Shown here one piece after another: positions 30,940 through 51,317 of a stretch of DNA of 64,000 bases (position 1 is the first letter of the stretch; every line of letters begins with the position of its first letter). The position numbers and the translations under genes were made by a program. The notes under the pieces are model-generated. The model was not told where the DNA came from, did no database searches, and saw only the letters and a program-made list of their open reading frames with translations. The DNA comes from Candidatus Yanofskybacteria bacterium. GTDB lineage: Bacteria; Patescibacteriota; Minisyncoccia; 2-02-FULL-40-12; IGHO2-12-FULL-4. Location of the stretch: the NCBI GenBank assembly GCA_016185525.1, contig JACPNK010000005.1:28473-92472 (forward strand), given 5' to 3'.

Positions 30940-31694
30940 TCATTTAATGTCAGCGACTCCGGACGCCTTTTTTCGTCAATGCCGGCTTCTTGAAGCTTTT
31001 TTCCAAGGGCCGCCCTTGGAAGGCTTAGTCCGGCGGAGAGACTGTTTAATAATTGTTTTCTTTTGCCGTTGAAAGCCAAACGGGCTAATTTCATAATTTT
31101 TTCAACTTGTTCTTTTTCCGTCGGACCTTGGTCTTTAGGTGTCATTTTTATTAAAGCCGAATCAACTTTCGGTACTGGCCGGAAATTTCCTTTGGAAATA
31201 TATTTTAAAATTTTTGCGTCTGCGTAGAACCGAACCGACAAAGCCAGCAAACTCATTTTGGAAGGTTTAGCGACTATTCTTTGGGCTACTTCTTTCTGTA
31301 CCATGAACAAAATTAACTTTGGTGAAGGCCATTCGCTAAGCACTCTTCTTAAAAGTTGCGATGTCAAATAATAAGGGATATTCCCCACTACCTTGTATTT
31401 CCAAGGTTCGACCTTGATCAGATTAAGGTCGAACCTTAATATGTCTCCCTCAATCATTGTAACATTTTTTTGATTTTTAAACTTGGTTTGTAGAACCGGA
31501 ACTAAGTTTCGGTCTTTTTCAACGGCAATAATTTTTGCTCCGGTTTCCGCCAGTTTTTCGGTCAACAGACCTGTGCCGGCGCCGACTTCCAGCACAGTGT
31601 CGCTAGCTGAAATTTCAGCCATTTCAACTATGGATTTAAGTATACTGGCGTTTCTTAGAAAATTTTGACCCAATTTTCTTGACGGCCTTATCAT
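30900..31694 (-). CDS. rsmA: 16S rRNA (adenine1518/1519-N6)-dimethyltransferase
   Basis: 264 aa; KLGQNFL and SAM motif VLEVGAGTGLLT. Confidence 0.9.
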   Translation of the reverse strand: MIRPSRKLGQNFLRNASILKSIVEMAEISASDTVLEVGAGTGLLTEKLAETGAKIIAVEKDRNLVPVLQTKFKNQKNVTMIEGDILRFDLNLIKVEPWKYKVVGNIPYYLTSQLLRRVLSEWPSPKLILFMVQKEVAQRIVAKPSKMSLLALSVRFYADAKILKYISKGNFRPVPKVDSALIKMTPKDQGPTEKEQVEKIMKLARLAFNGKRKQLLNSLSAGLSLPRAALGKKLQEAGIDEKRRPESLTLNEWRKLSQILSLQF

Positions 31695-31715
31695 GCTTGT
31701 ATCTTATTTAGCGCA

Positions 31716-31861
31716 GCAGACACAGCCTCTGAAGTCGCTGAGGAGGCAGTTTGCATGGTTGAGATTAAGTATAGTTATTCTTAACTTAATCTCAAAACTG
31801 CCGACGTCGCGAGCGAACGGAGTCGCTGGCGTAGTGAGCGTGCTGAAGAGGCTGTGTCTGC
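31716..31861. repeat. 146 bp MITE-like element, copy 1 (15 bp terminal inverted repeats GCAGACACAGCCTCT)
   Basis: About 89% identical to the reverse complement of 45448-45593. Termini are gcagacacagcctct...agaggctgtgtctgc. Confidence 0.6.
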
Positions 31862-31876
31862 GAAGCTAAAAAGTTC

Positions 31877-34800
31877 CTAGTCATAATCTATAAAATCTTC
31901 GTAATTAAAGTCCCGCCTAAACGGTTTTTTTGTATTTTCAGATATAAAATCTTCGGGTATTTCAGAGACGAATCTTGAAACCGGATTAAATTGAGACGAA
32001 CCATAAACCATGCGGTTTTGGCAGTGAGTCAAATAAAGTTTTTCTTTGGCTCTGGTGATTCCAACATAGCAAAGTCTTCTCTCTTCCTCCAACTCAACCG
32101 GATCAGTAATTGATCTGGGATGAGGAAACAGACCTTCTTCCATGCCTGCTAAAAAAACGGTTGGAAATTCCAGGCCTTTGGAAGCGTGCATGGTCATCAG
32201 GGTTGCGCTTTTTTCTTGGTTTTTAATTTGGTCGGTTTCTTGTATCAACGAAACCTCTTCCAGAAAAACCGGCAGAGATTCGCGCGACTTTAGGTTGTCG
32301 TATTTTGACGTAACTGTCAGAAGTTCTTTTACGTTCTCCCAGCGGGATTCGTGGTCAACAGTTTTTTCCTGAAGGTATTTTTGGTAGTCAATATTTTGGA
32401 GGAGTTTTTTTATGAGTTTTGAAAGGTAAGACTCGTCTAGTTTTTCTTCCAAAGCATTTATGGTTTTGCTCAATGAAGCCAAACCGGACAAAGCTTTCTT
32501 ATCTAATTCTTCTCTGTGATTTTTGAAAAGCTCAAAAACATTTCCGGCAGATTTTTGTTTTTGAATTTCCAGTATCCTTTCAAATGTTTTCTTGCCGATT
32601 CCTCTGCTTGGTACGTTGTGAATTCTTTCTAAACTAAAGTTGTCGCTCGGATTGAGCAGAAGCCTTAGATAAGCCAAGACGTCTTTAATTTCTTTTCTTT
32701 CATAAAATTTTAAGCCGCCAATAATTTTGTAGGGCAGACCGGCTTTCAGCATGGCTTCTTCAACAGCGCGGGACTGGGCGTGAGTGCGGTATAAAACACA
32801 AAAGTTGTTTAAGTCTTGTCCTTTTTTTAGTCCCTTTTTTATTTCGTCGGTTATAAATTTACCCTCTTCTCTTTCATTTCCTAATTCGGCAAGCAGTATT
32901 TTTTCGCCTTCCTGATTTTCAGTCCAGAGATTTTTGTGTCTTTGGAATTTATTGTTTGAAATAATATTTTGGGCGGCGGCTAAGATGTTCTGGGTTGAGC
33001 GGTAGTTTTGCTCCAAAAAAACAATTTTTGCCTCCGGATAGTCTCTTTCAAAACTTAAAATGTTGCGCAAATCTGCTTGTCGGAATCCGTAAATAGAGTT
33101 ATGGACAGCAAAATTGTTGGCAGTATAAGTGTGTGTTCTTTCAATATCTAGGTCGTAAACGGGGCCGTTATAATCAATTTTTTTAATATCAATGATTTTT
33201 TCGTTAACAAATTTTTTACCGTTAAAAACAGGAACAACCATGTGGGAATGCAAGTGAGATGCAGGCATAAAGTCAAAGTTAATGTCGGTGATTAAGGCGT
33301 GTTTTGTGACTTCAACGCCACACAATTCGGCTATTTGGCCGGCAAATTCTTCTGCCTTTTTATTATCGGCAAATACTTTCTCAATTCGCCAAGTATTAGC
33401 TTTGCCTTTTCTGACTTTCAGTCCGGAGTCTGTGAGTAATTTTCTAATTTTTTTGTTTTGGTTGTTTATACTGACTCTTGCTCTCCGTGACTTTGCTCTA
33501 GTTCCGCCATCGGAAGATGAAAAGTAGCACAGATTAACGGAAGTTCTCTTGGTTTGAAATTTTGTGGTTCCTTGCGGTCGGTGGTGGGGATAACTAAACG
33601 ACAAATCCAGATCAAGCATTAATTTTTTAGCGCGTTCAGCGCTTGGTATTTCTCGGAAAAGCTTTTCAATTTGTTTTTGGGTAATTAAACCGGAATCCGG
33701 GCCATTGCCTCTGTCAGCAAAAAAGACGGTAGTGGGTATGCCATAGTTAAAAGCATAATAAGACTCCCAAAAATGAGCTTCGGAACGGTTAGGCGAAAGT
33801 TTTAGAATCCACATTTTGTCAGCTCTTTCTTGATTAGCCCGCACATTTAGTCCAAGTCTGCTTTTGTTTTTTTTTATCTGTCTTATTCCCACAGTAACGC
33901 CTATTCTGTATCCTAATTTCTTAGAATACATCAAGTAAGTAAGAAAAAAATTTTTAGAGGGAAGAAGTTTACTAAACAAAATATGGTTGGGGGTGGTTTG
34001 TAAGACATTTCCATTTGCAGTGGTTATTTCCAGTAGCGGCCCCTTATATCGAAATCTTCTTGCATTTAATACTTTTGCCGGGCGAGTTAAACTTCTTCCG
34101 GCTGGCGACAAAATGTTCTCCCCTTTACTGACTTTTTCAATCTCTTTTAAGCCCTTTTCGGTTTTAATTTTTGTTTTTGGCGGAAAACATTGGTAATCAT
34201 CCCCAACAGCCATGATATTTTTGTGTTTTTGAGCCAGCATTTTCAGAAAAAGATACTGCGGTTTGTTGGTGTCCTGATATTCATCAACCAAAATGTATCT
34301 AAAGCGGTCTTGGTATTTTTCCAGTATGCTTTTTCCCTGTTTTAACATTTTTACGGTCCAAAAAAGCAGATCGTCAAAATCCATAGCGTTGCTGTTTTCC
34401 AAGTTTTTCTGGTAGAGAGGATAAATTTTAGCGACGATTTTTTCAAAAAATTCCTTAGCCGAGCCGCTGTATTCAGCCGGTCCGGCCAGGTTGGTTTTGG
34501 CTTCAGATATTCTGGCAAGCACGGCGCGGGGATTTGTTTTTTTTGTGTCAATTTCCAGTTCTTCCATTACTTTCTTGATAACGCCAAGCTGATCCTCGGT
34601 ATCGTAAATGACAAAGTTGGAAGTGTAAGGCGAGTTAAATTTTCCGATTTCGTTTCTTAACAACCTTGCCGATATGGAGTGAAACGTCCCCAGCATAGGA
34701 AAACCTAAATTTTGAATTTTGCCTGCCCCGCCGTTGGCGTATGACCTGGGGAATTTTGAATTTTGAATTAAGCTTATAACCCGCTCCCTCATCTCCCCCG

Positions 34801-34993
34801 CGGCTTTGTTTGTGAAAGTAACCGCTAAGATATTTTCTGGTCTTACTCCCTGCTGGATTAAGTGAGCAGTCCGATGGGTCAGCACCTTTGTTTTACCGCT
34901 GCCAGCGGCGGCAATAACCAAAACCGGACCCTCTGTGGCCCGTACCGCTTCAACTTGTTTTTCGTTTAAACCCTCAAAAAGATTTTTAGACAT
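31877..34993 (-). CDS. UvrD/PcrA-family ATP-dependent DNA helicase interrupted by an intein
   Basis: Walker A AAAGSGKTKVL and DEYQDTN. Motif III VGDDYQ is split from SIYGFRQAD by about 367 aa. C-terminal helicase motifs (QNYRST, VTRAKEKL) are intact. Confidence 0.85.
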   Translation of the reverse strand: MSKNLFEGLNEKQVEAVRATEGPVLVIAAAGSGKTKVLTHRTAHLIQQGVRPENILAVTFTNKAAGEMRERVISLIQNSKFPRSYANGGAGKIQNLGFPMLGTFHSISARLLRNEIGKFNSPYTSNFVIYDTEDQLGVIKKVMEELEIDTKKTNPRAVLARISEAKTNLAGPAEYSGSAKEFFEKIVAKIYPLYQKNLENSNAMDFDDLLFWTVKMLKQGKSILEKYQDRFRYILVDEYQDTNKPQYLFLKMLAQKHKNIMAVGDDYQCFPPKTKIKTEKGLKEIEKVSKGENILSPAGRSLTRPAKVLNARRFRYKGPLLEITTANGNVLQTTPNHILFSKLLPSKNFFLTYLMYSKKLGYRIGVTVGIRQIKKNKSRLGLNVRANQERADKMWILKLSPNRSEAHFWESYYAFNYGIPTTVFFADRGNGPDSGLITQKQIEKLFREIPSAERAKKLMLDLDLSFSYPHHRPQGTTKFQTKRTSVNLCYFSSSDGGTRAKSRRARVSINNQNKKIRKLLTDSGLKVRKGKANTWRIEKVFADNKKAEEFAGQIAELCGVEVTKHALITDINFDFMPASHLHSHMVVPVFNGKKFVNEKIIDIKKIDYNGPVYDLDIERTHTYTANNFAVHNSIYGFRQADLRNILSFERDYPEAKIVFLEQNYRSTQNILAAAQNIISNNKFQRHKNLWTENQEGEKILLAELGNEREEGKFITDEIKKGLKKGQDLNNFCVLYRTHAQSRAVEEAMLKAGLPYKIIGGLKFYERKEIKDVLAYLRLLLNPSDNFSLERIHNVPSRGIGKKTFERILEIQKQKSAGNVFELFKNHREELDKKALSGLASLSKTINALEEKLDESYLSKLIKKLLQNIDYQKYLQEKTVDHESRWENVKELLTVTSKYDNLKSRESLPVFLEEVSLIQETDQIKNQEKSATLMTMHASKGLEFPTVFLAGMEEGLFPHPRSITDPVELEEERRLCYVGITRAKEKLYLTHCQNRMVYGSSQFNPVSRFVSEIPEDFISENTKKPFRRDFNYEDFIDYD
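33098..34198 (-). mobile_element. intein (about 367 aa) in helicase motif III
   Basis: Begins CFPPKTKIKTEKGLKEI... (Cys1) and ends ...NNFAVHN followed by the +1 Ser of SIYGFR. No clear LAGLIDADG motif was seen, so the endonuclease domain may be degenerate or absent. Confidence 0.7.
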
Positions 34994-35063
34994 GTAAACT
35001 CTTTTGGTTCTATCATATTTTTGAGCTGATTAAAAACAAAAAACCAGATTTGCTGATTTATTT

Positions 35064-35136
35064 GTATCCCCGGACCGATTTGAACGGTCGGCCTCTTCCT
35101 TCGGAGGGAAGCGCTCTTCCGCTGAGCTACGGGGAC
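35064..35136 (-). tRNA. tRNA-Arg (anticodon CCG)
   Basis: Cloverleaf GTCCCCG/TAGCTCAGCGGAAGAGC/CTTCC-CTCCGAA-GGAAG/GACCG-TTCAAAT-CGGTC/CGGGGAT-A. No encoded CCA. Confidence 0.8.
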
Positions 35137-35178
35137 GATTCCAACGAGATAAATTTTTTCTTGCGAGTTGCCAGATGA

Positions 35179-35592
35179 TTATTTAATTTTTTCTAAGTCA
35201 CCGTTTATAATGACTGGCTTAACGGCCTCAATCTCTGACTTGTAATACGGTATTTCTGGAATAGGATTGTACAAAAATATTTTCTGACCTAAAACATGAG
35301 CAAATCCTATTTCCATTAACGTATTGCCGCCGATATAGTATTGAATGTTGTTCTTGTCCAGGTTCATTACTAATATGGCGTCTGCTCCCTGCATTAATTT
35401 CCAGAATTCTTTTATAGCATCCAAATTATATTTTTGATGAAGTTTGATTTTCTCTATTTCTTCATCAGATTTGCCAATGAAAGGATCTGCAAGATTTGTG
35501 AGAAAAGCATCGTGTCCATATTTAACAAGCTCATCACGAGCTTCAATCATTTTTTCTGTATATTGCATACTGCCAACAACTCCAATTCTCAT
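35179..35592 (-). CDS. nucleoside 2-deoxyribosyltransferase-like small protein (putative)
   Basis: 137 aa; the pattern GADAILVMNL...GGNTLMEIGFAHVLGQKIFLY resembles the PF05014 fold. Confidence 0.35.
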   Translation of the reverse strand: MRIGVVGSMQYTEKMIEARDELVKYGHDAFLTNLADPFIGKSDEEIEKIKLHQKYNLDAIKEFWKLMQGADAILVMNLDKNNIQYYIGGNTLMEIGFAHVLGQKIFLYNPIPEIPYYKSEIEAVKPVIINGDLEKIK

Positions 35593-35628
35593 AATTATTT
35601 TTGTTGTATTTGTCTCCTGTTAGAAATG

Positions 35629-35703
35629 CTGGTGGACCCGAGGGGAATTGCACCCCTGACCCCTGCAATGCGAATGCAATGCTCTGCTGCTGAGCTACGG
35701 GCC
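35629..35703 (-). tRNA. tRNA-Ala (anticodon CGC), CCA encoded
   Basis: GGGCCCG/TAGCTCAGCAGCAGAGC/TTGCA-TTCGCAT-TGCAG/GGGG-TGCAATT-CCCCT/CGGGTCC-A-CCA. Confidence 0.8.
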
Positions 35704-35712
35704 CGTCTCTTA

Positions 35713-35784
35713 GTCGGAATGCCGGAATTCGAATCCGGACTACCACCACCCGAAGATGGCGTGCTACCGTTACACCACATTCCG
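35713..35784 (-). tRNA. tRNA-Pro (anticodon CGG)
   Basis: Starts with a C1-G72 pair (CGGAATG...CATTCCG-A) as is typical of tRNA-Pro; anticodon loop TTCGGGT; T-loop TTCGAAT. Confidence 0.75.
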
Positions 35785-37230
35785 TTATTCCACAAAATGT
35801 TTTTGCTTGATTTTTTTAACTTCTTTTTCCTCTTCTTCTGTTATTTTTTCTTTGCCCGCTTGGGCCAGTTTTAGTATTTCTTTTTCTGACAATTTATTTA
35901 ACTCAGCAGAGCGCTTGTTCAGGTATTCTGCACTGTTTTTGCCGGGATCTTCCAATACCTCATTCATCAAGGCGTTAATGATCATACCAACTTTTGGTCC
36001 GGGACTAATTTTGAGCAGCTGCATAAGTTGATTGCCGTTGATTTTTAGCATTTTTGGCGAAAGTGGGTCGCGAGCCACTTTGTCAATCATAAACTGCAGG
36101 TGGCGCAGTTTGTAAGGTTTTGCTTTAGGCGTGCCGGAACCGATTCGATCAGCTTCTCTGACCTTGATTAAATCTTCAACATTTTCTTTGCCGATGTTTG
36201 CCACCAGCCGTCTGACCGAACTTTCGGTAACTTCGCCGACATTGTAGTAAAACAGATGCCATCTTACCAGCTTAATAATTTTTTCAGCCTGCTTTTGCGG
36301 AAACTTTAAGCGATCTAAAACTTGGGCGGTCATTTTGGCGCCAATCATTTCATGGGCGTAAAAAGTTGAATTCCGACCCATTCCCCTTTTTGACCTTGGT
36401 TTGCCGACATCGTGCAGGAGTGAAGCCAGTCTGACTTCTACGGAATAATTTTTTGAACAAGCGTAATCAAGAGCGCGGATATTGTGTTCCCAAACGGTGT
36501 AAATATGGTGCAGGTTTTGCTCAACCCCGACTCCTTCAAGCAATTCTGGCAAGGCGTATTGCATAAGCTCGGTTTCCCGCAATAGCTCTGCGCCTTTCTT
36601 AGCGTCCCGGCTTTCAACTATTTTCACTAGCTCGTCGCGGATTCTTTCTTTTGATATTATTTTCATCAAAGAATGTTTGTTTTTTATCGCTTCAAGAGTT
36701 TTCTCTTCAATAGTAAAGTTAAGCGAAGCGGCAAATCTTACGGCGCGCATCATGCGTAGAGCATCTTCGGAAAATCTTTCTTCCGGATCGCCGACTGCCC
36801 TTATGACTTTTTCCTTTAAATCTTTTTGTCCGTCAAACAAGTCGGTAACTTTGCCTTCTTTATCCATTGCTAAAGCGTTTATCGTGAAGTCGCGCCTCTT
36901 TAAATCTTCTTCCAATTTCTCGGCAAACCTTATTTTATCCGGATGTCTTTTGTCGGTATATTTTGACTCTATGCGGTAAGTGGTAACTTCCACCACCAAA
37001 GTTTTTTCTTCCTGACCTGTTTTTACACCCACAGTGCCGAAATCATTTTCATAAAAACTATCGGGAAAAATTTTCTGAATTTCTTCAGGCTTGGCGTTGG
37101 TGGTTATGTCCCAGTCAGTCGGCTCTTTGCCTAGCAACAAATCGCGCACACATCCACCCACGACAAAAGCCTGAAAATTGTTTTCTTCCAGTTTTTCCAG
37201 AATTGATTTTACTTCTTTGGGTAAAGTCAT
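35785..37230 (-). CDS. cca: CCA-adding tRNA nucleotidyltransferase with HD domain
   Basis: 481 aa; head motif VVGGCVRDLLLGKEPTDWDITT and HD motif LLHDVGKP. Confidence 0.85.
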   Translation of the reverse strand: MTLPKEVKSILEKLEENNFQAFVVGGCVRDLLLGKEPTDWDITTNAKPEEIQKIFPDSFYENDFGTVGVKTGQEEKTLVVEVTTYRIESKYTDKRHPDKIRFAEKLEEDLKRRDFTINALAMDKEGKVTDLFDGQKDLKEKVIRAVGDPEERFSEDALRMMRAVRFAASLNFTIEEKTLEAIKNKHSLMKIISKERIRDELVKIVESRDAKKGAELLRETELMQYALPELLEGVGVEQNLHHIYTVWEHNIRALDYACSKNYSVEVRLASLLHDVGKPRSKRGMGRNSTFYAHEMIGAKMTAQVLDRLKFPQKQAEKIIKLVRWHLFYYNVGEVTESSVRRLVANIGKENVEDLIKVREADRIGSGTPKAKPYKLRHLQFMIDKVARDPLSPKMLKINGNQLMQLLKISPGPKVGMIINALMNEVLEDPGKNSAEYLNKRSAELNKLSEKEILKLAQAGKEKITEEEEKEVKKIKQKHFVE

Positions 37231-37345
37231 GTTGTAAATTTAACTGTGGCTAGGACTTACTTACGTTACTATTGCACTGTTTATAACTATTTGTTAGTAT
37301 ACTAGTGACAGGCGTCGACCGTTTGGTCTATGGCCTGTTTTTTGT

Positions 37346-38110
37346 TTATTTAAATGAGTTTTTAGTGCCCTTGAATATGCTAATTTTAAACTTTTCTTTC
37401 AAAAATTTATCTTGTCGATTCCCTCGTTTATCAATAAAGAATGAACCATTTTCTATACCGAGTTTCTCTTGTAAAAAGTCTAGTAATTTTGACTTAAGAT
37501 TTGGGTGTTTTTTGAGGATACTATCTTGAATTTTGAGGTCGTAAAGCACTGCACCGAGCAGTAGATCGGTTAGTTGCAAAAGATCGGAAGATTTTGAATT
37601 TATTTGCAAGAATCCGGCAATAACTATCTTTTTATAATGATCGTTTACTATGCCACGAGTTGCTAGTTCCAAGTTTATACCATCAGGATAAAAATAATCA
37701 TCAGCCAGTACCGTACATATTTGATTGTCACCATTTCCAATGTTTCTCTTAAGAAGATCTACTGTAAAAGAACGGTAAACCTTTAAAAGGTTGTTGTTAA
37801 AATAAGTTTTAAAGTCCAACTCGTTCTTTTTGAGAATAATAGAGCTAAATACAGCGGAAGGATCTTTAAAGAAAGCTTCAAATCCCTGCTTTATGATTTC
37901 ATATTTAAGCGGACTCACTTTGTTCCATTTTAGTTCTTCATAAAAGTGAAGTTTGTCACGCAAGGTTCTTATTTTTCTCTGTAGTTCATGGGGCCGTTCT
38001 GTTCTGATTACGCCCAATGCAAAATATGGGTCATCACCTTTTTTTAATATACCAGTTTCATCTAGGAAAAATACTGGCAATTTTATTTTTTTGAAGTCGT
38101 TATCTATCAT
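37346..38110 (-). CDS. DUF3800-like hypothetical protein
   Basis: 254 aa; N-terminal VFFLDETG and a C-terminal LTDLLLGAV pattern as in DUF3800. Confidence 0.4.
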   Translation of the reverse strand: MIDNDFKKIKLPVFFLDETGILKKGDDPYFALGVIRTERPHELQRKIRTLRDKLHFYEELKWNKVSPLKYEIIKQGFEAFFKDPSAVFSSIILKKNELDFKTYFNNNLLKVYRSFTVDLLKRNIGNGDNQICTVLADDYFYPDGINLELATRGIVNDHYKKIVIAGFLQINSKSSDLLQLTDLLLGAVLYDLKIQDSILKKHPNLKSKLLDFLQEKLGIENGSFFIDKRGNRQDKFLKEKFKISIFKGTKNSFK

Positions 38111-38149
38111 TTATTTTTTGTGGAATTATACAACTCTGCTTGAACATTT

Positions 38150-38300
38150 TTTGAAGAGAACTAACCGCCTCTGCGGAGTTTATCCCGCACCGAGCTTGCT
38201 CTGGTGCGGGGCTCCGGCGGAACGCTCGGGCGCGGCGGAATTCCCCCCACACTCTCTTCCGTCGCGTCCTCGCGGGAGGCCAAAATTTTTTCGGCACCAA
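38150..38300. other. about 150 bp GC-rich (about 70% GC) intergenic island with an 8 bp GC hairpin, in an otherwise roughly 40% GC context
   Basis: ctctgcggagtttatcccgcaccgagcttgctctggtgcggggctccggcggaacgctcgggcgcggcggaattcccccc... lies between the NUDIX gene and the DUF3800-like gene. Confidence 0.3.
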
Positions 38301-38771
38301 CTATAATGACTGCCGCAATTCCGATACTTTTAGTGTAGCTTCTCTCGGCACATTTTCAAAATTAGTTTTTGCGTCCTCAATAAACCAATCACGAATTTCG
38401 AGAGGATATAAAAGTAATTGTGGCAGACCTTTTGTATTGTACCAAATCGGATTGTAAAAATTTGTATTACTTTCTTTCATATCTCGCGCCTCGTTTCCGT
38501 CGCCAAGTTTTGGCTCGCCGGAAACATATCGACAAAGATAGAAAAATTGCTCAGTGTTGTCGTCGTAAATGTGATGGTAAAGCAATTTTTCTATCTTTAC
38601 TTCAAGTGATGTTTCCTCTTGGACTTCGCGTAAAACCGCCTGCTCGACAGTTTCACCATTTTCTATGCCGCCGCCAGGAAAGACATGATATTCTTTTCCG
38701 TTGTTTATGCGGTGCATTAGTAAAATCTTTCTATTATTTACTATTATGGCGACGGCGCGGATTCTTTTCAT
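38301..38771 (-). CDS. NUDIX hydrolase
   Basis: 156 aa; Nudix box GGGIENGETVEQAVLREVQEETSL. Confidence 0.85.
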   Translation of the reverse strand: MKRIRAVAIIVNNRKILLMHRINNGKEYHVFPGGGIENGETVEQAVLREVQEETSLEVKIEKLLYHHIYDDNTEQFFYLCRYVSGEPKLGDGNEARDMKESNTNFYNPIWYNTKGLPQLLLYPLEIRDWFIEDAKTNFENVPREATLKVSELRQSL

Positions 38772-39538
38772 AACTTTTTCAATTCAAAAATCATAAAGAG
38801 TGGGATTTTTGAATGAATATCGTAAAAGTTTGGCTTTTCTTTCACAACAGGTTTTAGTGGTTTTGGTTCAACGAAATCTGAAATAATAAAACCACTTTTT
38901 ACAATATCGCTGATAATTTCGGAAAGCGGGCGATGATAGTAGCTAACTTTAAATTCGTTGAACCAAATGTCATCAATTTTTCTTGTGTTGAGATAGTCGC
39001 CAAAAACTTTACTTTCGCCAGATTCGTATTTCTCATATCCCATTAAGAATGTGTCCTTTTCTTTTGACCGATTTACTGACGCACCCCATTTAACTGGGTG
39101 GTGTGTGGAAAAAAGAAATGTTCCGTCCTTTTTCAAAATCTTATGAATACCGTTCAAGGTTTTTGTCCAATCTTTAACATAGTGCATTGTTAAACTTGAG
39201 TAAACAAAATCAAAAGAGTTGTCGGGAAAATTTAATTTTTCCATGTCTATTACATGAAATTCCAAATCGGGATAACTCTTTTTAGCAAAATCAATCAGTC
39301 CTTTTGAAATATCTATACCGACGACTCTTTTTGCTCCGAGGGATTCTAGATGTTTGCATTCTTCGCCAGTTCCACAACCTATGCATAAAACGGACTTTTC
39401 TTTCAGATCGGGAAGTTTTTTGTACATCGCTGGCTTCTCTAAAAATTTATGTGCGATGTTTTTACCACTTCGCATTTTCTCCGCCCATTTGAGAGCGTAG
39501 TCATCATAAGATTTAATTGTTTTTTTATCGGTAGCCAT
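38768..39538 (-). CDS. class I SAM-dependent methyltransferase
   Basis: 256 aa; motif I VLCIGCGTGEE and an acidic motif II. Confidence 0.8.
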   Translation of the reverse strand: MATDKKTIKSYDDYALKWAEKMRSGKNIAHKFLEKPAMYKKLPDLKEKSVLCIGCGTGEECKHLESLGAKRVVGIDISKGLIDFAKKSYPDLEFHVIDMEKLNFPDNSFDFVYSSLTMHYVKDWTKTLNGIHKILKKDGTFLFSTHHPVKWGASVNRSKEKDTFLMGYEKYESGESKVFGDYLNTRKIDDIWFNEFKVSYYHRPLSEIISDIVKSGFIISDFVEPKPLKPVVKEKPNFYDIHSKIPLFMIFELKKL

Positions 39539-39542
39539 AAAT

Positions 39543-39716
39543 TTATTTCAATAACTCATCCGCTGACACGTCAAGTGCGTCAGCCAATCTTTGAATTGTT
39601 GCAAGATTAGGATTCTTATTACCGCTCTCAATGTTGCTAATGTAACCCTTATCTACCTCCAAAAGCTACGCTAAAACTTCTTGCGACAATTTTTTCTTGG
39701 CGCGAACCTATTTCAT
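39543..39716 (-). pseudogene. XRE-family helix-turn-helix remnant with two in-frame TAG codons
   Basis: Translation is MK*VRAKKKLSQEVLA*LLEVDKGYISNIESGNKNPNLATIQRLADALDVSADELLK. The frame is intact and HTH-like except for two amber codons. Genome-wide recoding is unlikely because dnaN terminates with TAG. Confidence 0.35.
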
Positions 39717-39740
39717 GTTCTCGCCTAATTTTTTGGATAT

Positions 39741-39815
39741 TGGTGCCCTCGCCATGAGTCGAACATGGATTTAGACGCTAGGAGTGTCTTGTTCTATCCA
39801 TTGAACTACGAGGGC
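39741..39815 (-). tRNA. tRNA-Arg (anticodon CCT), CCA encoded
   Basis: GCCCTCG/TAGTTCAATGGATAGAAC/AGACA-CTCCTAG-CGTCT/CCATG-TTCGACT-CATGG/CGAGGGC-A-CCA. There is an A31-C39 mismatch at the base of the anticodon stem. Confidence 0.7.
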
Positions 39816-39889
39816 TATTATATCGTTTAATGTTGCCATCTTAGCACTTTTATGATATTTTTCAATTAAAATTTTAAACACTAACTAAT

Positions 39890-40267
39890 ATGCAAACAGA
39901 AAAAAGAGAAGATAAATTTTCCGGGCCAAGAGTTGAGATTAAGGTGGATTTCTCAAGGAACTTGAAAGAGTTGAACGATTCGGAGTTGAATGACGTCATT
40001 AACGTTTTTCGGCACTATAAAGCCGGACGCTTGGCAGAGTTGCGCAAAAACAATCCGAGTTTTGGTATGGTTGATTTTGAAAACCATAAATTTGAGAGGG
40101 AAAAAGTTTTTGCGGCGATTAAAGAGGCGCTTAAAGGCGCGGATGTACCGGTAGAATTGATGGATGTAAACTACGCAGACGCTTTAAATATTATAGATTG
40201 GTATGATAAGGAGAACAAAAAACAAAATGATAAAAAGTTTAAAGAAAAAAAGTTCTCTTCTTATTAG
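39890..40267 (+). CDS. hypothetical protein
   Basis: 125 aa ORF with a Lys-rich C-terminus and no recognisable motif. Confidence 0.4.
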   Translation: MQTEKREDKFSGPRVEIKVDFSRNLKELNDSELNDVINVFRHYKAGRLAELRKNNPSFGMVDFENHKFEREKVFAAIKEALKGADVPVELMDVNYADALNIIDWYDKENKKQNDKKFKEKKFSSY

Positions 40268-40271
40268 AAAA

Positions 40272-40343
40272 GGGCCTGTAGCTCAGCGGCAGAGCACTTC
40301 TATGGCATAGAAGGGGTCGCCCGTTCAAATCGGGTCAGGTCCA
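40272..40343 (+). tRNA. tRNA-Ala (anticodon GGC)
   Basis: GGGCCTG/TAGCTCAGCGGCAGAGC/CTTCT-ATGGCAT-AGAAG/GCCCG-TTCAAAT-CGGGT/CAGGTCC-A. Confidence 0.8.
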
Positions 40344-40460
40344 CAACTTAAAAAATGTTATCAAAAAAGAGGCGTAATGGCCTCTCTTGCGGTGTGTTTG
40401 CTTGAAGGGTATCGCTTTGATATTCTGTTTGTAGAAACTTTACAAATTGAGGCTTAGTGA

Positions 40461-41156
40461 ATGAGAAAAGTTATTTTTACTTTTTTATTTTTTTGCTTTT
40501 CTTTGAGTGGATTTGTTGAAGCTAAAGATGCTTGTTGTTGTAACTCAAAATACGGCAACAAAGATTTCAAGAAAGCTTTTTTGGGCGAGTACTCGCTGGA
40601 GAAGCAGAATTTTGTGGCTGATCTTTGGAAACTTCAGCGGTTTGAGAACGAGTTGGAGATTAAAGAAGCCGTGCGGTTAAAGAAACTGGTTTCTGTTCCG
40701 TCATCTACGCAGTATTATTTCGTTGACTCTCGTCTGGACAAGAAGACCCACTTTGTAAGTCCATGGACTTTAATTTTTATCGATCAACTTAGTAAAGATT
40801 TTTACGAACGCGCCCAAAGTGATAAAAAGAAGAACAAAAAGAAAATTAAAGTTGCGAGTCTTGTTAGGCACAGAAAATATCAGAAAGCTTTGGCTAAAAG
40901 AAATCCCAACGCGGTTTGGGACGAGAATAATCCTGATCGTCAATCCAGCCATCTCACTGGCGCAACTTTTGATGTCAGCACCAAAGACTTAACCAGAGAT
41001 GAAATATGCTGGCTAAAAGAGTATCTTTTGGAATTACAAAATTTAAATCTTATTCACGTCAGAGACGAGTTTTACAACAACTGTCTTCATGTTATGGTTT
41101 TTCCGGTACCGACTTTCTTTGGGGATTTTGAGAAATATGTAAACGAGCGGAAGTAG
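40461..41156 (+). CDS. secreted protein, possible LAS/M15-like metallopeptidase fold
   Basis: 231 aa with a signal peptide; SSHLTGATFD resembles the SxHxxGxAxD zinc-binding motif of M15/YcbK-like peptidases. Confidence 0.35.
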   Translation: MRKVIFTFLFFCFSLSGFVEAKDACCCNSKYGNKDFKKAFLGEYSLEKQNFVADLWKLQRFENELEIKEAVRLKKLVSVPSSTQYYFVDSRLDKKTHFVSPWTLIFIDQLSKDFYERAQSDKKKNKKKIKVASLVRHRKYQKALAKRNPNAVWDENNPDRQSSHLTGATFDVSTKDLTRDEICWLKEYLLELQNLNLIHVRDEFYNNCLHVMVFPVPTFFGDFEKYVNERK

Positions 41157-41207
41157 ATCCGCTTTTTTGTTGAAAAAAGACTCTAAAAATGCTAATTTGT
41201 TAAGTCT

Positions 41208-41292
41208 GGAGGGTTCGCCTAATGGCATGGCAGCGGTTTCGAAAACCGCCGGGCGCAAGCCCTTAGAGGTTCGACTCCTCTACCCTCCGCCA
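41208..41292 (+). tRNA. tRNA-Ser (anticodon CGA), long variable arm, CCA encoded
   Basis: GGAGGGT...GCGGT-TTCGAAA-ACCGC-CGGGCGCAAGCCCTTA-GAGGT-TCGACTC-CTCTACCCTCC-G-CCA. Confidence 0.8.
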
Positions 41293-41402
41293 GTTGGGAA
41301 ATGAAGTCATTGCCTGCCTGCCGGCGAGGCAGGGCTTGTGCAAACGGCTGGCAAGATTACCAAAGCGTTAGGTGTTCCAATGGAAGATTTGGTACAATAA
41401 AT

Positions 41403-41939
41403 ATGGTTAAGGTCATCCAAAAAGATGGTAAAAACATATATCAACATGAGGAGGAGGGCATGATGCTTGAAGATAAAATAGGCATTATCGGCCGTTCCCT
41501 TAGACTGCTCGCCGGTCTTCTTATATTGTTTTATCTTGCATATGCCTTTGTAAGTGAAAGTTTTTTATTGAGCGTGAACTTCTTTTTTGTGGCGGCTGTA
41601 GGGTTATTTTTACTCATTTCGATATACATATTTGTTCACAGGATTTCTAGAAAAAACAATCGCATTAACTGGTTGGTTTCTGCCTGCTTAATTCTTATTC
41701 CCGTTCTTTTGATGTATATTTTTGGCGGGGCATCTGGCGAGGGTAAAGTATCAGCCCTGCTTTTTCTCGGTGTCTCACTAATCGTAGCGGCAATTCGTTC
41801 CGATTTTGGTTGCGAAGTAATGTCTATACCAAACTTAATTTTTGGAAAGAGATCTCGATTTGCGTGTCTTGTTTTTTCACCATTAGATAAAATGGAAAAA
41901 AGACATATCAGCCGCCAAAAAAAACTTGAAGACAACTAA
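41403..41939 (+). CDS. membrane protein (hypothetical)
   Basis: Multi-TM. The track ORF begins at 41301, but that extension overlaps a tRNA end and a GC palindrome, so the start is more likely Met 41403 or 41460. Confidence 0.4.
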   Translation: MVKVIQKDGKNIYQHEEEGMMLEDKIGIIGRSLRLLAGLLILFYLAYAFVSESFLLSVNFFFVAAVGLFLLISIYIFVHRISRKNNRINWLVSACLILIPVLLMYIFGGASGEGKVSALLFLGVSLIVAAIRSDFGCEVMSIPNLIFGKRSRFACLVFSPLDKMEKRHISRQKKLEDN

Positions 41940-41964
41940 AAACCCTCGCTTGAGGGCTTTAAAC

Positions 41965-42369
41965 TTACTTGTTTTTCTTTTTCTTAACTTCGTCAGAACT
42001 AAGCCCGAAGACAACAGAACAAATGCCCATCATTACCGCAAGCATAAGAAATGGCACAGCTTCTTCTAAAGAAACCGCTCTGGCCACTCTGGCGAAACCA
42101 AAAAAGATAAAACTTAAATATCCGGAAATCAGAGCAAACATAAAAAATCTGTCGGGAAATTTTTTATTCTGCGCCCAAACGGCAAGAACAGCCCCTCCGA
42201 CGAAAGTCGCGAGAAACAACAAAAGCAAGCTTGGACTAGGGTCCGCCCCCCTTATAAAAACAAACATGCCAAACATTGAACCAAAGAAAATCAAAAGTCC
42301 GACAATACTCAAAAACTTCATTTCCGTCCTCATTTCCCTAAGACAAAAAGAACTTTTGTAATTATACAA
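41965..42369 (-). CDS. small 4-TM membrane protein (hypothetical)
   Basis: 134 aa hydrophobic ORF. Confidence 0.4.
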   Translation of the reverse strand: MYNYKSSFCLREMRTEMKFLSIVGLLIFFGSMFGMFVFIRGADPSPSLLLLFLATFVGGAVLAVWAQNKKFPDRFFMFALISGYLSFIFFGFARVARAVSLEEAVPFLMLAVMMGICSVVFGLSSDEVKKKKNK

Positions 42370-42425
42370 AAACCTGGTAAAAAGTAAACTTTGATTTTCA
42401 CAACTTCAACTGTTAAGATTCGGAT

Positions 42426-43829
42426 ATGCTTAGACCAGAAAAAACAAACATCGCAGAAAAGACCAAGACAAAACCCCAAGAAAGAGTCGGCGAGTTGAGA
42501 GAAAACGAGAAAAAGATTTTGGATAATTTACTGGAAATAACAAAGTGGTTTGAAGATTACGAAGCCACTTGTTTTGGTTTGGACAAAAATGTGGCCGACA
42601 AAAATCCCAAACTGGAAAAATATCTCAAAGACTTTTACAAAGAATTTCGCAACTTTGAACAGCCAGCCGAAGCCCAAAAGGTTGAAGCTGAAGCGAGAAA
42701 TTCAGATATCGTCTTCCTTGGAGACCGACACAACCTAAGAAAAAATCAAGAGTTTTCAGCCGAGTTTATAGAAAAAGTGGTTAAACCGCAGTCGGGTCAG
42801 GCGGTTTTGGCCTTAGAATTTATTTCGCCCAAACACCAGAAAGCGGTAGAAGAATTTATGTCAGATAAAATAGACGAGGAGTCGTTTTTAAAAAGATCCC
42901 ATTTTCTGGAGTGGAGTGACCTGGAACATTGGCCGGGTTATAAAAAAATATTGGAAACAGCCAAAAAACTTGGGATTAAAATCTATGGCATAAAGTTTCA
43001 AGCCGAGAGCGGCGAACAAGATCTGGAAGACAAATTTTTCGTCGAAAAAATTGCGGCTATTGCGGAAAAGCATCCGCAAGCTAAATTGTTTGTCCATATC
43101 GGTGATGCTCATCTGGCCGGCAGTCACTTGCCGAAAGCCTTGTCTCAAATTGACCGGTTCCGAAACAAAAAAAGTACTACAGTTTTACAGAATATCCGGC
43201 CGTTATATTTCTCTGCTTTGGAAAGATACGAAAACTTTCGGATACCCAAAGTTCTTAAGATCAAAGGTGGAACTTACAACTTCTTTACCGCACCCCTGAT
43301 CACGGAAGTTGTTTCAGACATAGAAAACTTAAAACAGTTTGCCGGTGAAACTGAAGGAGAGATAGATATTTGGTCTGATGTCTTGGGCGTGGAGATTGTC
43401 AGCAGGCTTAGAAAAATAACCGGCATTGGCACGGATGAAAGAATTGTTGATTCAAAAGATTTGTCGCCTTCACTTTTCTCCCCCTCTTTTTATTTGGAAC
43501 AGGACAGCGAAGTAGTCGCGAAACAACTGAAAGAAGAAGCGCCGGCAGGCGCCTACAGCCGATACCTAAAAACTTTAGAAGAAAAAGGCTGCGCCTATGT
43601 TCCTTTCAGCAACTCTTTGGTCATAAGAAAGTTCAGGCTGAAGAGAATAATTGAGGAGCTGGCGAAGTTTGTGATAGACCCCAAAGGAGAAAAAGGCGAT
43701 ATTTCCAGTTTACAATATTTTTGCTCAAAGCTTTTTATCCCCGAGCGCCGGCCGGAAGACGAAAAAGAAGAGGTCGGGGAAAAAGTTTTTCTTGATTTTC
43801 TTGCCGGTAAACAACCGTCTCTTCCTTAA
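42426..43829 (+). CDS. hypothetical protein, possible ChaN/Tiki/TraB-superfamily fold
   Basis: 467 aa; DIVFLGDRHN resembles the GE(Q)HD(N) motif of the ChaN/Tiki family. Confidence 0.35.
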   Translation: MLRPEKTNIAEKTKTKPQERVGELRENEKKILDNLLEITKWFEDYEATCFGLDKNVADKNPKLEKYLKDFYKEFRNFEQPAEAQKVEAEARNSDIVFLGDRHNLRKNQEFSAEFIEKVVKPQSGQAVLALEFISPKHQKAVEEFMSDKIDEESFLKRSHFLEWSDLEHWPGYKKILETAKKLGIKIYGIKFQAESGEQDLEDKFFVEKIAAIAEKHPQAKLFVHIGDAHLAGSHLPKALSQIDRFRNKKSTTVLQNIRPLYFSALERYENFRIPKVLKIKGGTYNFFTAPLITEVVSDIENLKQFAGETEGEIDIWSDVLGVEIVSRLRKITGIGTDERIVDSKDLSPSLFSPSFYLEQDSEVVAKQLKEEAPAGAYSRYLKTLEEKGCAYVPFSNSLVIRKFRLKRIIEELAKFVIDPKGEKGDISSLQYFCSKLFIPERRPEDEKEEVGEKVFLDFLAGKQPSLP

Positions 43830-43837
43830 AACCAAAT

Positions 43838-44374
43838 GTGGTGTTAGATTTAAGCATGTCTCAAATCATAGACTTGAGAAAAAAGAATGTTGAAAATAGC
43901 AAAACAGCTTTGCCTTCAAAAATTTCCGGCCGCATTCCCGCTCATTATCAGTTTGTAAACAAGTCGCTGCTAGCGGTCATAGTCTCTGTTTTGGCCATAA
44001 TCGGCCTGCTCTATCTGCTTATTTCTCAAAACACCGTTACCGCCATATTCTTTTTTTTGATTGCAACGGTTATGGTGATTTTAGGAATGCAAGAGAAGAA
44101 AGATGTGGCTTGGGAGATAAACCAAAGAGGTTTGGTGTTAGATGGGGAGGTCTATCTTTACAGACACTTGAAATCTTTTTGGATTGAGTATGATCCCCCA
44201 TTTCTTAAAGAGCTTAGCTTTAAGCACAAAGGTTGGCACCGCTCTTACATCAAACTTCCTCTTGTCGGCCAAGAAAGTCCCGTAGAAATCCGCAATATGC
44301 TGTTGTGTCTTTTGCCGGAAGAGCGGCACGAAGATACTATAATTGAGACTATCACCAGAAAATTGGGCATGTAA
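43838..44374 (+). CDS. 2-TM membrane protein (hypothetical)
   Basis: 178 aa. Confidence 0.4.
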   Translation: MVLDLSMSQIIDLRKKNVENSKTALPSKISGRIPAHYQFVNKSLLAVIVSVLAIIGLLYLLISQNTVTAIFFFLIATVMVILGMQEKKDVAWEINQRGLVLDGEVYLYRHLKSFWIEYDPPFLKELSFKHKGWHRSYIKLPLVGQESPVEIRNMLLCLLPEERHEDTIIETITRKLGM

Positions 44375-44378
44375 CACT

Positions 44379-44451
44379 GTCCCCGTAGCTCAACGGATAG
44401 AGCGTTTGCTTGCGGAGCAAAAGGTTGGGTGTTCGAATCACCCCGGGGACA
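44379..44451 (+). tRNA. tRNA-Arg (anticodon GCG as read; unusual for bacteria)
   Basis: GTCCCCG/TAGCTCAACGGATAGAGC/TTTGC-TTGCGGA-GCAAA/GGGTG-TTCGAAT-CACCC/CGGGGAC-A. Confidence 0.65.
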
Positions 44452-44461
44452 CAACTCTTTC

Positions 44462-44478
44462 CTGAGGACAGTCCTCAG
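44462..44478. repeat. palindrome CTGAGGACAGTCCTCAG (family A), immediately 3-prime of a tRNA
   Basis: Perfect 17 nt palindrome. Family members are also at 29744-29760, 45651-45692 and 59331-59345. Confidence 0.6.
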
Positions 44479-44540
44479 GGCTTGCACACGAGGGCACAAG
44501 ATAGTTGCTATTTTTAGTTTTTGTAGTACCATCTCACTAT

Positions 44541-45434
44541 ATGGCAAAAATTATTGTAACTGGCGGAGCGGGTTTTATCGGCTCAAATTTGGTGGATGAG
44601 TTGGTCAGGCAAGGCCACAAAGACATCCATATTATTGACAACCTCTCAACCGGTAAAAAAGAAAATCTTAATCCAAGGGCTAAATTTCACAATTTAAGTA
44701 TTGTTGATCTGGATAAAATCAGGCCCATCTTCAAAAAAGCGGAAGTTGTTTTTCACTTGGCGGCTCAACCCAGAATTCAGCCCTCAATCAAAGACCCCAA
44801 AACTTCTCACGATGCCAATCTCACCGGTACTCTGCATGTTTTGCTTGCCGCCAAAGAAGCCGGGGTTAAGAAATTTATATACTCTGCTTCTTCTTCAGCT
44901 TACGGCCTGCAAAAAACTACGCCCTTGCGGGAAGATATGATCGCCAATCCCCTCAACCCTTATGCCATGCAAAAATACATGGGCGAAAGATATTGCCAAC
45001 TTTTTCACCACCTTTACGGTTTGCCGATTGTCTGTTTAAGGTATTTTAATGTCTATGGGCCCAGGCAAACTTATGAAGGCGCTTATGCGACTGTAATCGG
45101 AATTTTTTTAAAACAGAAAAAAGCCGGCCAGCCGCTGACTATTGTTCCTGACGGCAAACAGAGAAGAGATTTTATCAATGTCCGGGATGTGATAGCTGCT
45201 AACCTTGCGGCTATGAAGTCGGACAAAGTCGGCAAAGGAGAAATTATAAATATCGGCAGTGGGGAGAATTACTCAATTGTTGAAGTAGCAAAAATGATTG
45301 GCGGTAAAACAAAAGTTATTGCCCCCAGAAAAGGAGAAGCTAGATTAACTTTGGCTGATATTAGTTTGGCTAAGAAATTACTTGGCTGGAAGCCGACGGT
45401 AAGGCTGGTTGATGGGATAGAAGAGTTGAGATGA
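44541..45434 (+). CDS. NAD-dependent epimerase/dehydratase (UDP-sugar 4-epimerase/decarboxylase-like)
   Basis: Rossmann motif TGGAGFIGSNL and a YxxxK catalytic motif (YAMQK). The track ORF starts at 44505; the likely start is MAKIIV at 44541. Confidence 0.8.
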   Translation: MAKIIVTGGAGFIGSNLVDELVRQGHKDIHIIDNLSTGKKENLNPRAKFHNLSIVDLDKIRPIFKKAEVVFHLAAQPRIQPSIKDPKTSHDANLTGTLHVLLAAKEAGVKKFIYSASSSAYGLQKTTPLREDMIANPLNPYAMQKYMGERYCQLFHHLYGLPIVCLRYFNVYGPRQTYEGAYATVIGIFLKQKKAGQPLTIVPDGKQRRDFINVRDVIAANLAAMKSDKVGKGEIINIGSGENYSIVEVAKMIGGKTKVIAPRKGEARLTLADISLAKKLLGWKPTVRLVDGIEELR

Positions 45435-45447
45435 GTCGTTCAGCTTC

Positions 45448-45593
45448 GCAGACACAGCCTCTTCAGTACGCTCACTTCGCCAGCGTCTCCGTTCGCTCGC
45501 GACGTCGGCAAATTTGAAATGAAGTTAAGAAAAATTATACTTCATTTCAACCATGCAATTTGCCTCCTCAGCGACTTCAGAGGCTGTGTCTGC
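45448..45593. repeat. 146 bp MITE-like element, copy 2 (inverted relative to copy 1)
   Basis: gcagacacagcctct...agaggctgtgtctgc; about 89% identical to the reverse complement of 31716-31861. Confidence 0.6.
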
Positions 45594-45650
45594 TATGCTT
45601 TATTGGTCGTCGGCTCTCAAAGCATTTAACCACCCATTTTCGAACCTTTT

Positions 45651-45692
45651 CCGAGGACTGTCCTTAAATCTGAAAAAAGGACAGTCCTCGGA
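45651..45692. repeat. family A palindrome as a split hairpin (15 bp stem, 12 nt loop)
   Basis: ccgaggactgtcctt-aaatctgaaaaa-aggacagtcctcgg. Confidence 0.55.
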
Positions 45693-45743
45693 TCTGACCT
45701 TAACATGTGTATAAAACCTTGAAAAATGAGGGTTTTTAAACCA

Positions 45744-45773
45744 TTGACAATGGTGGTTAAAGTTTGGTATAAT
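45744..45773 (+). promoter_or_regulatory. near-consensus sigma70-type promoter (TTGACA, 18 nt spacer, TATAAT)
   Basis: ttgacaatggtggttaaagtttggtataat, followed by GGAG and the ATG of a 60 aa ORF. Confidence 0.5.
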
Positions 45774-45802
45774 TAGAGTATAGAATTTCCCGGAGCTTAA
45801 AG

Positions 45803-45985
45803 ATGACCACAGAAGAAACAGAACAAAAGCGTTTTGAAGAAATTTTAGAAAGTATTCGTCGCAGAATGGCGGCGGATGCCTTAAGAGGAAATCCCGTAGG
45901 AAGAAAAACTTACGGTCATAGTCCAAAGATTGACAACGACTATGATTCTGGAGATCGAGCACATTATATCTTAGATCACGAGTAA
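45803..45985 (+). CDS. small hypothetical protein (60 aa) in a compact promoter-ORF-terminator unit
   Basis: MTTEETEQKRFEEILESIRRRMAADALRGNPVGRK...; it has an upstream consensus promoter and a downstream terminator. Confidence 0.4.
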   Translation: MTTEETEQKRFEEILESIRRRMAADALRGNPVGRKTYGHSPKIDNDYDSGDRAHYILDHE

Positions 45986-46013
45986 AATAACACGAGAACG
46001 GTTATTGCGTTGT

Positions 46014-46044
46014 ACCCCGAGAGTTAATTCTCGGGTCTTTTTTT
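46014..46044 (+). terminator. rho-independent terminator
   Basis: cccgagagttaattctcggg followed by tcttttttt. Confidence 0.55.
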
Positions 46045-50079: not shown

Positions 50080-50082
50080 TAA

Positions 50083-51316: not shown

Positions 51317-51317
51317 C

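Follow-up and report, generated by a model that had tools for sequence, protein, structure and literature searches.

A structured intergenic repeat family at gene junctions of a Candidatus Yanofskybacteria genome and its relatives

What is a short sequence without a gene of its own doing twice, in opposite directions, among the housekeeping genes of a Patescibacteria (candidate phyla radiation, CPR) bacterium? The question is raised by a 64,000-nt stretch of Candidatus Yanofskybacteria contig JACPNK010000005.1 (hereafter the window), in which a preliminary description had noticed an element resembling a MITE (a miniature transposable element with inverted repeats), present in two inverted copies 13.7 kb apart. 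On balance, we favour the view that this element represents a new family, within a small superfamily of non-autonomous structured intergenic repeats of Yanofskybacteria-like CPR bacteria, akin to the ERIC, REPIN, Correia and RPE repeats. Within this superfamily we place type A (with subtypes A1 and A2), a diverged form termed A', and type B.

The element, its copies and the junctions they occupy

A repeat search of the window returned a single dominant inverted pair, with arms of 161 nt (31710-31870 and 45439-45599) that are 90% complementary; the runner-up by length was 41 nt at 76%. The inverted doublet of the preliminary description is thus the one standout pair in this DNA. The 15-mer GCAGACACAGCCTCT occurs exactly four times in the window, at both ends of both copies, and allowing up to three mismatches gave five matches against 0.8 expected. 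Since similarity continues for 6 nt past each 15-bp terminal inverted repeat (AGCTTC...TAYGCT), we define the unit as 158 nt, with the layout AGCTTC-GCAGACACAGCCTCT...AGAGGCTGTGTCTGC-TAYGCT and a terminal inverted repeat that is perfect over 15 bp, or 18 bp if the outer AGC/GCT is counted. Copy 1 (subtype A1) spans 31710-31867 on the minus strand and copy 2 (subtype A2) 45442-45599 on the plus strand, scoring 187.9 and 192 bits respectively with R1, a covariation model built on five intact type-A copies. The minus strand of copy 1 aligns to the plus strand of copy 2 at 90% identity; the earlier figure of 89% and the termini given with it are correct.

Copy 1 begins 9 nt 3' of the UvrD stop codon and ends 15 nt 5' of the KsgA start, both genes being on the minus strand, and copy 2 lies 7 nt past the stop codon of an epimerase gene on the plus strand. 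The element strand that is sense with respect to the upstream gene is the same in both copies. As had been claimed, no open reading frame (ORF) of at least 60 aa lies inside the element, although sense frame 3 is open from end to end; its translation found no candidates in a protein database. The KsgA beside copy 1 has an identical counterpart (100%) on a Logan contig from run SRR12113431 and shares 80% identity with the KsgA of a Candidatus Yanofskybacteria metagenome-assembled genome (MAG), and Logan contigs of the same organism start inside copy 1.

A diverged element of the same architecture, type B, was first seen in the orthologous UvrD-KsgA spacer of a Yanofskybacteria MAG (L122; loci from other genomes carry our L numbers). 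It has four motifs in common with the window's element, CCTCTTC, CCAGCGA, AACCATGC and TCAGAGGC, three of which were used to scan GTDB genomes. Of the nine places returned, six look like chance matches, about the number expected; three places lie in the MAG of L122 and one in a second MAG, CAYZNJ01. Three of the scanned places are intact type-A elements, located upstream of mreB (L126) and between serS and alr (L132) in MAG GCA_016181105.1, and between lnt and a gene for a TSP3-repeat protein (L128) in CAYZNJ01. All three sites differ from those in the window. Identity to the window is 94-97% for the elements, against only 72-86% for the flanking coding DNA. Copy 2 is 97% identical to L132 and 90% identical to copy 1, so that A1 and A2 each occur in more than one genome. 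Intact type A thus amounts to five copies at five different junctions in three genomes.

A third, diverged and 3'-truncated copy, A', is present in the window at 60671-60845 on the plus strand, upstream of a UPF0102 gene (R1 score 35.9 bits, E ~1e-7). Its 5' arm, AGCTTGGCAAATACCGCTTCT, is matched by a perfect 21-nt partner in another strain, the one that Logan contig L143 (from a sister sample) represents; relative to it, the window strain carries a deletion of ~67 nt. Comparison of L143 1-90 with window 60649-60845 places the intact 3' arm and ~52 extra bases in L143, among which window 60649-60667 (TGTCAAAAAGTTGTCCACT) recurs as a 19-nt direct repeat. A 28-nt A'-type fragment, from the 3' side of hairpin P3 (described below), lies at 59300-59327 on the minus strand, in sense orientation downstream of a LysM/M23 peptidase gene, and is 96% complementary to 60787-60814.

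With intact copies in two other genomes, and A' and the fragment in the window, the further copies that the preliminary description had asked after do exist. The alternative it had named to a mobile repeat was that one ancient duplication accounts for both copies. The presence of only two intact copies in the 64-kb window would suit such an event. It is refuted, however, by near-identical copies at non-orthologous sites in at least two other genomes, by the existence of related types, and by a copy 2 that is closer to another genome's copy than to copy 1. Copies 1 and 2 are true members of a dispersed repeat family, whose behaviour is that of repeats undergoing gain, loss and decay.

Applied to ~58 kb of other DNA from relatives (L135-L142), R1 detected no additional type-A copy, and the same held for ~26 kb of same-species Logan contigs (L143-L149) that mostly re-cover the window. 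A scan of GTDB genomes for exact 13+13-nt paired ends separated by 100-130 nt returned no match; one arm of the nearest copy, L128, carries a single mismatch. Nor were there matches in viral contigs to three patterns (one paired-end and two of interior sequence), or in plasmid and phage collections by blastn. In a metagenome scan for an 11+11-nt core, none of 121 loci held the window's element. The matches belong to an unrelated, very abundant palindromic family that shares only the 11-mer ACACAGCCTCT with it; these palindromes (contigs Ga0123352-57, Ga0131853, Ga0136643 and Ga0209755, and at least 120 contigs in all) are 122-151 nt long, have the ends GTCAAAATTGCATTACACAGCCTCTGGTATCATCACACCTATAGGTG and are often nested or in tandem.

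Comparison with relatives reveals turnover at individual junctions. At the UvrD-KsgA junction, type A occupies the site in the window and type B in L122; L124 has a shorter hairpin element there (type C), and L123 a type D that, read in frame, extends KsgA at its N-terminus. The junction is empty only in L125, the most distant relative, where the stop and start codons overlap (ATGATTAA). Behind the epimerase gene, the spacer contains type A in the window; L138/L139 (epimerase 91% identical) have type B, L135 has other sequence and L140 no element. The junction between lnt and the TSP3-repeat gene carries type A in L128 and a PF05635 gene cassette in the window, and is empty in L122 and L125.

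Fold, covariation and orientation

The preliminary description had suggested folding the element as RNA. Both copies fold into the same three-way junction, composed of a closing stem, a short extension and two hairpins, with z-scores of -8 to -10.6 whether folded as RNA or DNA and on either strand. In copy 2, the 5' arm of the closing stem P1 (GCAGACACAGCCTCT, 45448-45462, plus strand) pairs with the 3' arm (AGAGGCTGTGTCTGC, 45579-45593); in copy 1, 31847-31861 pairs with 31716-31730. Hairpin P2 (45478-45501 on the plus strand in copy 2; 31808-31831 in copy 1) is GC-rich, and its sequence is constant in all five type-A copies save for one mismatched base in copy 2. P3, the internal AT-rich hairpin already recognised in the preliminary description, is found in the folds of both copies (45507-45564, plus strand, and 31745-31802). 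Subtypes A1 and A2 differ in P3 by four compensated pairs. On its 3' side, P3 has a 7-nt bulge, ACCAUGC, containing a conserved AUG (45550-45556, plus strand, in copy 2; 31753-31759 in copy 1).

Standard pairs make up 97.8% of the pair cells across the five type-A copies. Changes on both sides of a pair were found at 9 pairs, compared with 4.1±1.4 in column shuffles (none of 500 reached 9) and 0-1 in a control with the partners slid. Of the paired columns 28 of 110 vary, versus 6 of 49 unpaired ones, and the junction strands, P2 loop and bulge are invariant except at one junction position. The outer part of the closing stem varies (GCAGACA, GCGAGTA, GGCAAAT, ACCACGA, GCAATAA) and is always complementary, A' having a different terminus again. 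Type B behaves similarly: the cores of the L122 and L139 copies are ~93% identical, their outer closing stems are wholly different yet complementary, and five internal pairs are compensated, three in P2 and two at the apex of P3. The type-B apical hairpin (CCCCTCACCAC...GTGGTGAGGGG, L139 ~1075-1115) also stands alone in L135 (~9840-9900), there terminator-like with a T-run behind it, which suggests that hairpin modules may be shared among elements.

Elements flanked on both sides by co-directional genes number six (copy 1, L128, L132, L122, L139 and L124, representing types A, B and C), and every one is in sense orientation; treating the events as independent, we roughly estimate a two-sided p of ~0.03 for this. 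Both dnaN and dnaA are encoded on the minus strand, at 12.8-15.5 kb of the window (region 12800-16403), with a 900-nt spacer before yidC, and the minimum of the cumulative GC skew falls nearby, at ~12-14 kb; this is likely the chromosomal origin. Copies 1 and 2 are on one replichore and point in opposite directions, each co-oriented with its local genes, so orientation tracks transcription rather than replication.

On the sense strand, a conserved CATG puts an (A/G)UG start codon in the bulge. Type B has its bulge ATG or GTG in frame with the downstream gene in both copies; in L122 this gene is KsgA, in L139 a FolD-like gene for which the gene caller's start is the bulge GTG itself. In type A, a 21-codon frame from the bulge AUG of copy 1 (31691-31756, minus strand) ends in a TGA that overlaps the KsgA ATG (ATGA); the short bulge frame of L128 also ends in an ATGA overlapping the downstream start, and that of L132 ends 27 nt before it. 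A Shine-Dalgarno-like motif precedes only 4 of the 46 window ORFs of at least 150 aa, so that translation initiation in this organism seems to be largely independent of such sites. An antisense small ORF (GGAGG, 8 nt, AUG) was discounted because the genome hardly uses them. P3 further contains a sigma-70-like TTGAxA-16-TATACT (45514-45541 in copy 2, 31795-31768 in copy 1) in four of the five type-A copies. We give this little weight because type B lacks it. The covariation and the orientation together make it plausible that the element is transcribed as a structured RNA.

Mobility and competing explanations

Is the element, then, a classical MITE? Such an element would be a deletion derivative of an insertion sequence (IS), mobilised in trans by a DDE transposase acting on the 15-bp repeats, and the two copies would be substrates for a 13.7-kb inversion. 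The perfect terminal inverted repeats, the small size, the absence of a gene and the differing sites in different genomes all agree with this, as does a partial rve_3 transposase fragment at the contig edge of L122, and to this extent the term MITE-like stands. Other points are not supported. Target-site duplications, proposed as a check, are not present: no significant direct repeat flanks any of eight copies examined, and none was seen on comparing junctions with empty or differently filled sites, the sole exception being the 19-nt direct repeat near A' when L143 is combined with the window. We found no match to a transposase, a reverse transcriptase or a RAYT (Y1_Tnp) among the window ORFs, and no transposase or autonomous partner in the loci of relatives that were compared. 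No IS with these ends was detected in the window or in the GTDB and viral paired-end scans, which spanned only 100-130 nt and so were not IS-sized. The interior is more conserved than expected of a passive MITE, with invariant junction bases, and a terminal stem that differs in sequence yet stays complementary does not fit the binding site of a sequence-specific transposase. Thus the label fits by appearance and fails at the target duplication, and we consider a classical MITE unlikely.

Inversion of the 13.7-kb segment fares no better. Gene order is the same as in relatives both at the tRNA-UvrD/KsgA-Lnt junction and at the ChaN-epimerase/60-aa gene-integrase-S15-NYN junction. With that order kept, each copy is merely co-oriented with its local genes, and the opposed copies leave no sign of inversion. 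Rare inversion events, a matter for sequencing reads, are compatible with the data; nothing in them indicates inversion.

Two further explanations dispense with a DDE transposase. The element could be an immobile chromosomal non-coding RNA (a small RNA family, or a cis-regulatory or intercistronic structure) maintained by selection, its various locations reflecting gene-order change and paralogy. Covariation in all helices, the invariant junction and bulge residues, an orientation tied to transcription, conservation exceeding that of the neighbouring genes and the promoter-like site in P3 are what such an RNA would be expected to display. It would not readily explain sites that are non-orthologous between genomes only 14-28% diverged and otherwise syntenic in the flanking genes, different element types at the same junction in close relatives, or a decayed copy, a fragment and a strain polymorphism that removes one arm. 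Moreover, the downstream genes are functionally unrelated (KsgA, the TSP3-repeat protein, Alr, FolD-like, UPF0102), there is no Rfam match and no consistent terminator, and a tally of G-U against A-C mismatches favours neither strand; we therefore regard an immobile RNA as quite improbable.

Alternatively, the element could be a recombination site used as a folded single strand, either attC-like and served by a tyrosine recombinase such as that encoded at 46092-47048, or REPIN-like and moved by a Y1/HUH RAYT. As in attC sites, a conserved fold accompanies variable stem sequence, and the elements sit directly after stop codons in a fixed orientation; types are swapped at the same site, target duplications are absent, and single-stranded DNA folds as stably as RNA. 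REPINs share the compensatory pattern (PMC3116915). The ends, AGCTTCGCAG...CTGCTAYGCT, nevertheless lack the R''/R' cores of attC (RYYYAAC/GTTRRRY), and no integron integrase or cassette array is present; the neighbours (UvrD, KsgA, epimerase, SerRS, Alr) are core housekeeping genes rather than cassettes. The adjacent recombinase is Xer-like and syntenic also in relatives without type A, and no Y1 transposase is encoded in the window. Transposition of the IS200/IS605 type, which acts on single strands, links orientation to replication, unlike the opposed copies seen here on one replichore. To a single-strand site of either kind we give only a slim chance.

Comparison with known repeat families sharpens the picture. 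Like REPINs, and REPs and BIMEs more generally, the element is a short, non-coding, intergenic hairpin repeat with no gene of its own and no classical target duplications, and REPIN hairpins also carry compensatory changes on the two sides of the stem (PMC3116915). A REPIN, however, consists of two inverted REPs of 20-40 nt that form a simple hairpin, is present in tens to hundreds of copies and is associated with a RAYT gene flanked by REPs. Here a closing stem with compensatory changes is seen, but what it encloses is a three-way junction, with two hairpins inside and invariant bases at the junction, rather than a spacer; copies number 2-3 per 64 kb, and no RAYT was seen in the window.

Correia elements (CREE/NEMIS) of Neisseria resemble ours in length (100-160 bp), inverted-repeat boundaries, positions beside genes, promoter-like sequences, locations that differ between strains and co-transcription, which in our case would follow from orientation. 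Their 26-bp repeats, site for integration host factor, TA target duplication and copy number in the hundreds were not found here. The long stem of Correia elements is an RNase III substrate, and they affect expression of adjacent genes through promoters and RNase III (PMC2649163).

ERIC/IRU and the Rickettsia palindromic elements (RPE) are, like ours, imperfect palindromes of ~127-150 nt in transcribed regions and compatible with translation (PMC10969869, PMC2229807). RPE fuse in frame with host genes (PMC10969869), a behaviour paralleled by type B, in frame with its downstream gene, and by type D within the called KsgA N-terminus of L123. They differ in belonging to other host phyla and in having no sequence similarity to our element; in addition, RPE are mostly inside genes whereas type A lies between them.

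Several other classes were set aside. In a scan of the window with Rfam 15 only tRNAs pass thresholds, and permissive scans of the elements gave only far-sub-threshold matches to hairpins of miRNA or snoRNA type. There is no Rfam signal for hammerhead or other small ribozymes, 6S RNA, retron msr/msd, bridge RNA or omega RNA, and no adjacent reverse transcriptase, TnpB or IS110 gene. The antisense strand does contain CUGAGGA, but no GAAA core follows helix II. Nor are the copies a template-repeat/variable-repeat pair of a diversity-generating retroelement: the changes between them are of every kind instead of being adenine-specific and pair up across stems, both copies are intergenic, and there is no reverse transcriptase despite the Avd-like PF05635 gene at 28920-29276. 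No site resembling an intrinsic terminator was found at either copy, short T-runs occurring behind the three A2-subtype copies only.

Against the structured-repeat family that we favour there are, besides the missing target duplications and partner enzymes, several points to be weighed. The intact sequences are few (five of type A and two independent ones of type B), and the copy number is low (2-3 per 64 kb, and three motif-matching copies in the other MAG). L126 contributes four adjacent compensated pairs that may reflect a single recombination event, because its terminus GCGAGTA is also found in type C. Template-switch "self-correction", or hairpin-templated palindrome repair, can imitate selected covariation, and since the G-U versus A-C tally is neutral between strands, selection at the RNA level is not demonstrated. 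The high identity between genomes could stem from recent horizontal transfer rather than constraint, and the placement of L126 and L132 in their MAG depends on binning. Finally, start-codon coupling holds in four of five cases, by rough estimate only marginal relative to chance (p ~0.05), and we treat it as a lead rather than a result.

How might such a family spread and persist? We propose that elements would spread or be exchanged between gene junctions and between related genomes, landing in the very short spacers of compact operons and persisting there almost only in sense orientation. That near-exclusive survival in sense suggests co-transcription with the flanking genes. Selection, or hairpin-dependent copying, would maintain the folded single strand, with its closing stem of 18-21 bp and two hairpins. 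The missing target duplications, together with an outer stem that varies yet remains complementary, favour recognition of a folded strand over a classical DDE transposase, and spread may depend on the fold rather than the sequence. In mRNA, the closing stem would tuck the insert away, and the (A/G)UG exposed in the bulge would let ribosomes either continue into the downstream gene or terminate at its start codon, so that, on our proposal, downstream expression would survive insertion. The 3' part of the element is compatible with downstream translation and may assist it, and processing of the RNase III type might also occur. A bolder extension is that A, A' and B, perhaps with C and D, constitute a hitherto unrecognised class of modular, exchangeable "intercistronic cassettes" in CPR bacteria, structured RNA/DNA units that take each other's place at shared operon junctions, are recognised by fold rather than sequence and each bring their own exposed start codon (type A also a promoter-like hairpin). 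They would then act as portable gene-expression adaptors that restore downstream translation or transcription in genomes without Shine-Dalgarno-led initiation and would not be merely selfish; we think this rather unlikely to hold.

Repeats of this general kind are known in bacteria, and full-text literature searches for MITEs or structured intergenic RNAs in Patescibacteria/CPR returned nothing relevant; they appear to be undescribed in these organisms. CPR genomes are tiny and tightly packed, yet dispersed structured repeats turn over at their operon junctions. There are consequences for MAG assembly and annotation, since metagenome assemblies break at the repeats, with contigs beginning or finishing inside them, and gene callers read them as N-terminal extensions (L139, L123). 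If the fold acts in mRNA, by processing or start-codon display, it would offer a handle on operon expression without Shine-Dalgarno sites. The model R1 is directly usable for a census of the family.

Neighbouring repeats and other features

Further hairpin elements occur in the window and in related loci. The 328-nt spacer between a type II secretion system ATPase gene and ruvB (5906-6233) holds two more elements with closing stems: one is a type D at 5922-6037, with related copies at L123 1080-1194 (inside the called KsgA ORF) and L140 2733-2778, and the other is 164 nt long, with 25-nt arms (6031-6055 and 6170-6194) that are 92% complementary. In L126, ~1.5 kb downstream of type A (2100-3590) contains no ORF of at least 70 aa and is crowded with closing-stem hairpins, such as CTGCGGAGCGGG...CCCGCTCCGCAA; a sub-threshold tRNA-like match of 23 bits lies within it at 2335-2395 on the minus strand. 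The PF05635 gene at the lnt-TSP3 junction ("23S rRNA intervening sequence protein", Avd-like; minus strand, within 28872-29304) is flanked by 31-nt inverted repeats at 28907-28937 and 29279-29309 that are 90% complementary, and looks like a separate small mobile cassette.

The UvrD-like helicase gene beside copy 1 (31877-34993, minus strand) encodes 1038 aa including an intein (Intein_splicing/Hint, ~residues 265-632); its orthologue in L122 has 657 aa and no intein. A sub-threshold Rfam match within it, to n00280 ("C. difficile sRNA included into helicase gene"; 32016-32100, minus strand, 52.9 bits against a gathering threshold of 65.2), most likely reflects conserved helicase coding sequence. 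Beyond copy 2 (45600-46091), a 120-aa ORF at 45600-45962 on the minus strand looks spurious, and there is a perfect 16-bp hairpin at 45650-45692 and a 12/12 sigma-70 promoter with an extended -10 at 45744-45773 on the plus strand. A 60-aa ORF at 45803-45985 has a counterpart among the called genes of L135, in the same position and with DNA that is 86% identical. Lastly, the region 49794-53296 contains four copies of a 52-nt direct repeat (CCACCTTTAAATTTATTAAGTAATRTGGTA...), spaced ~1.1-1.2 kb apart, and a pair of 121-nt repeats that are 96% identical. All these repeats are situated upstream of a run of uncharacterised genes, some of which share internal sequence, and are probably a repeated promoter or leader.

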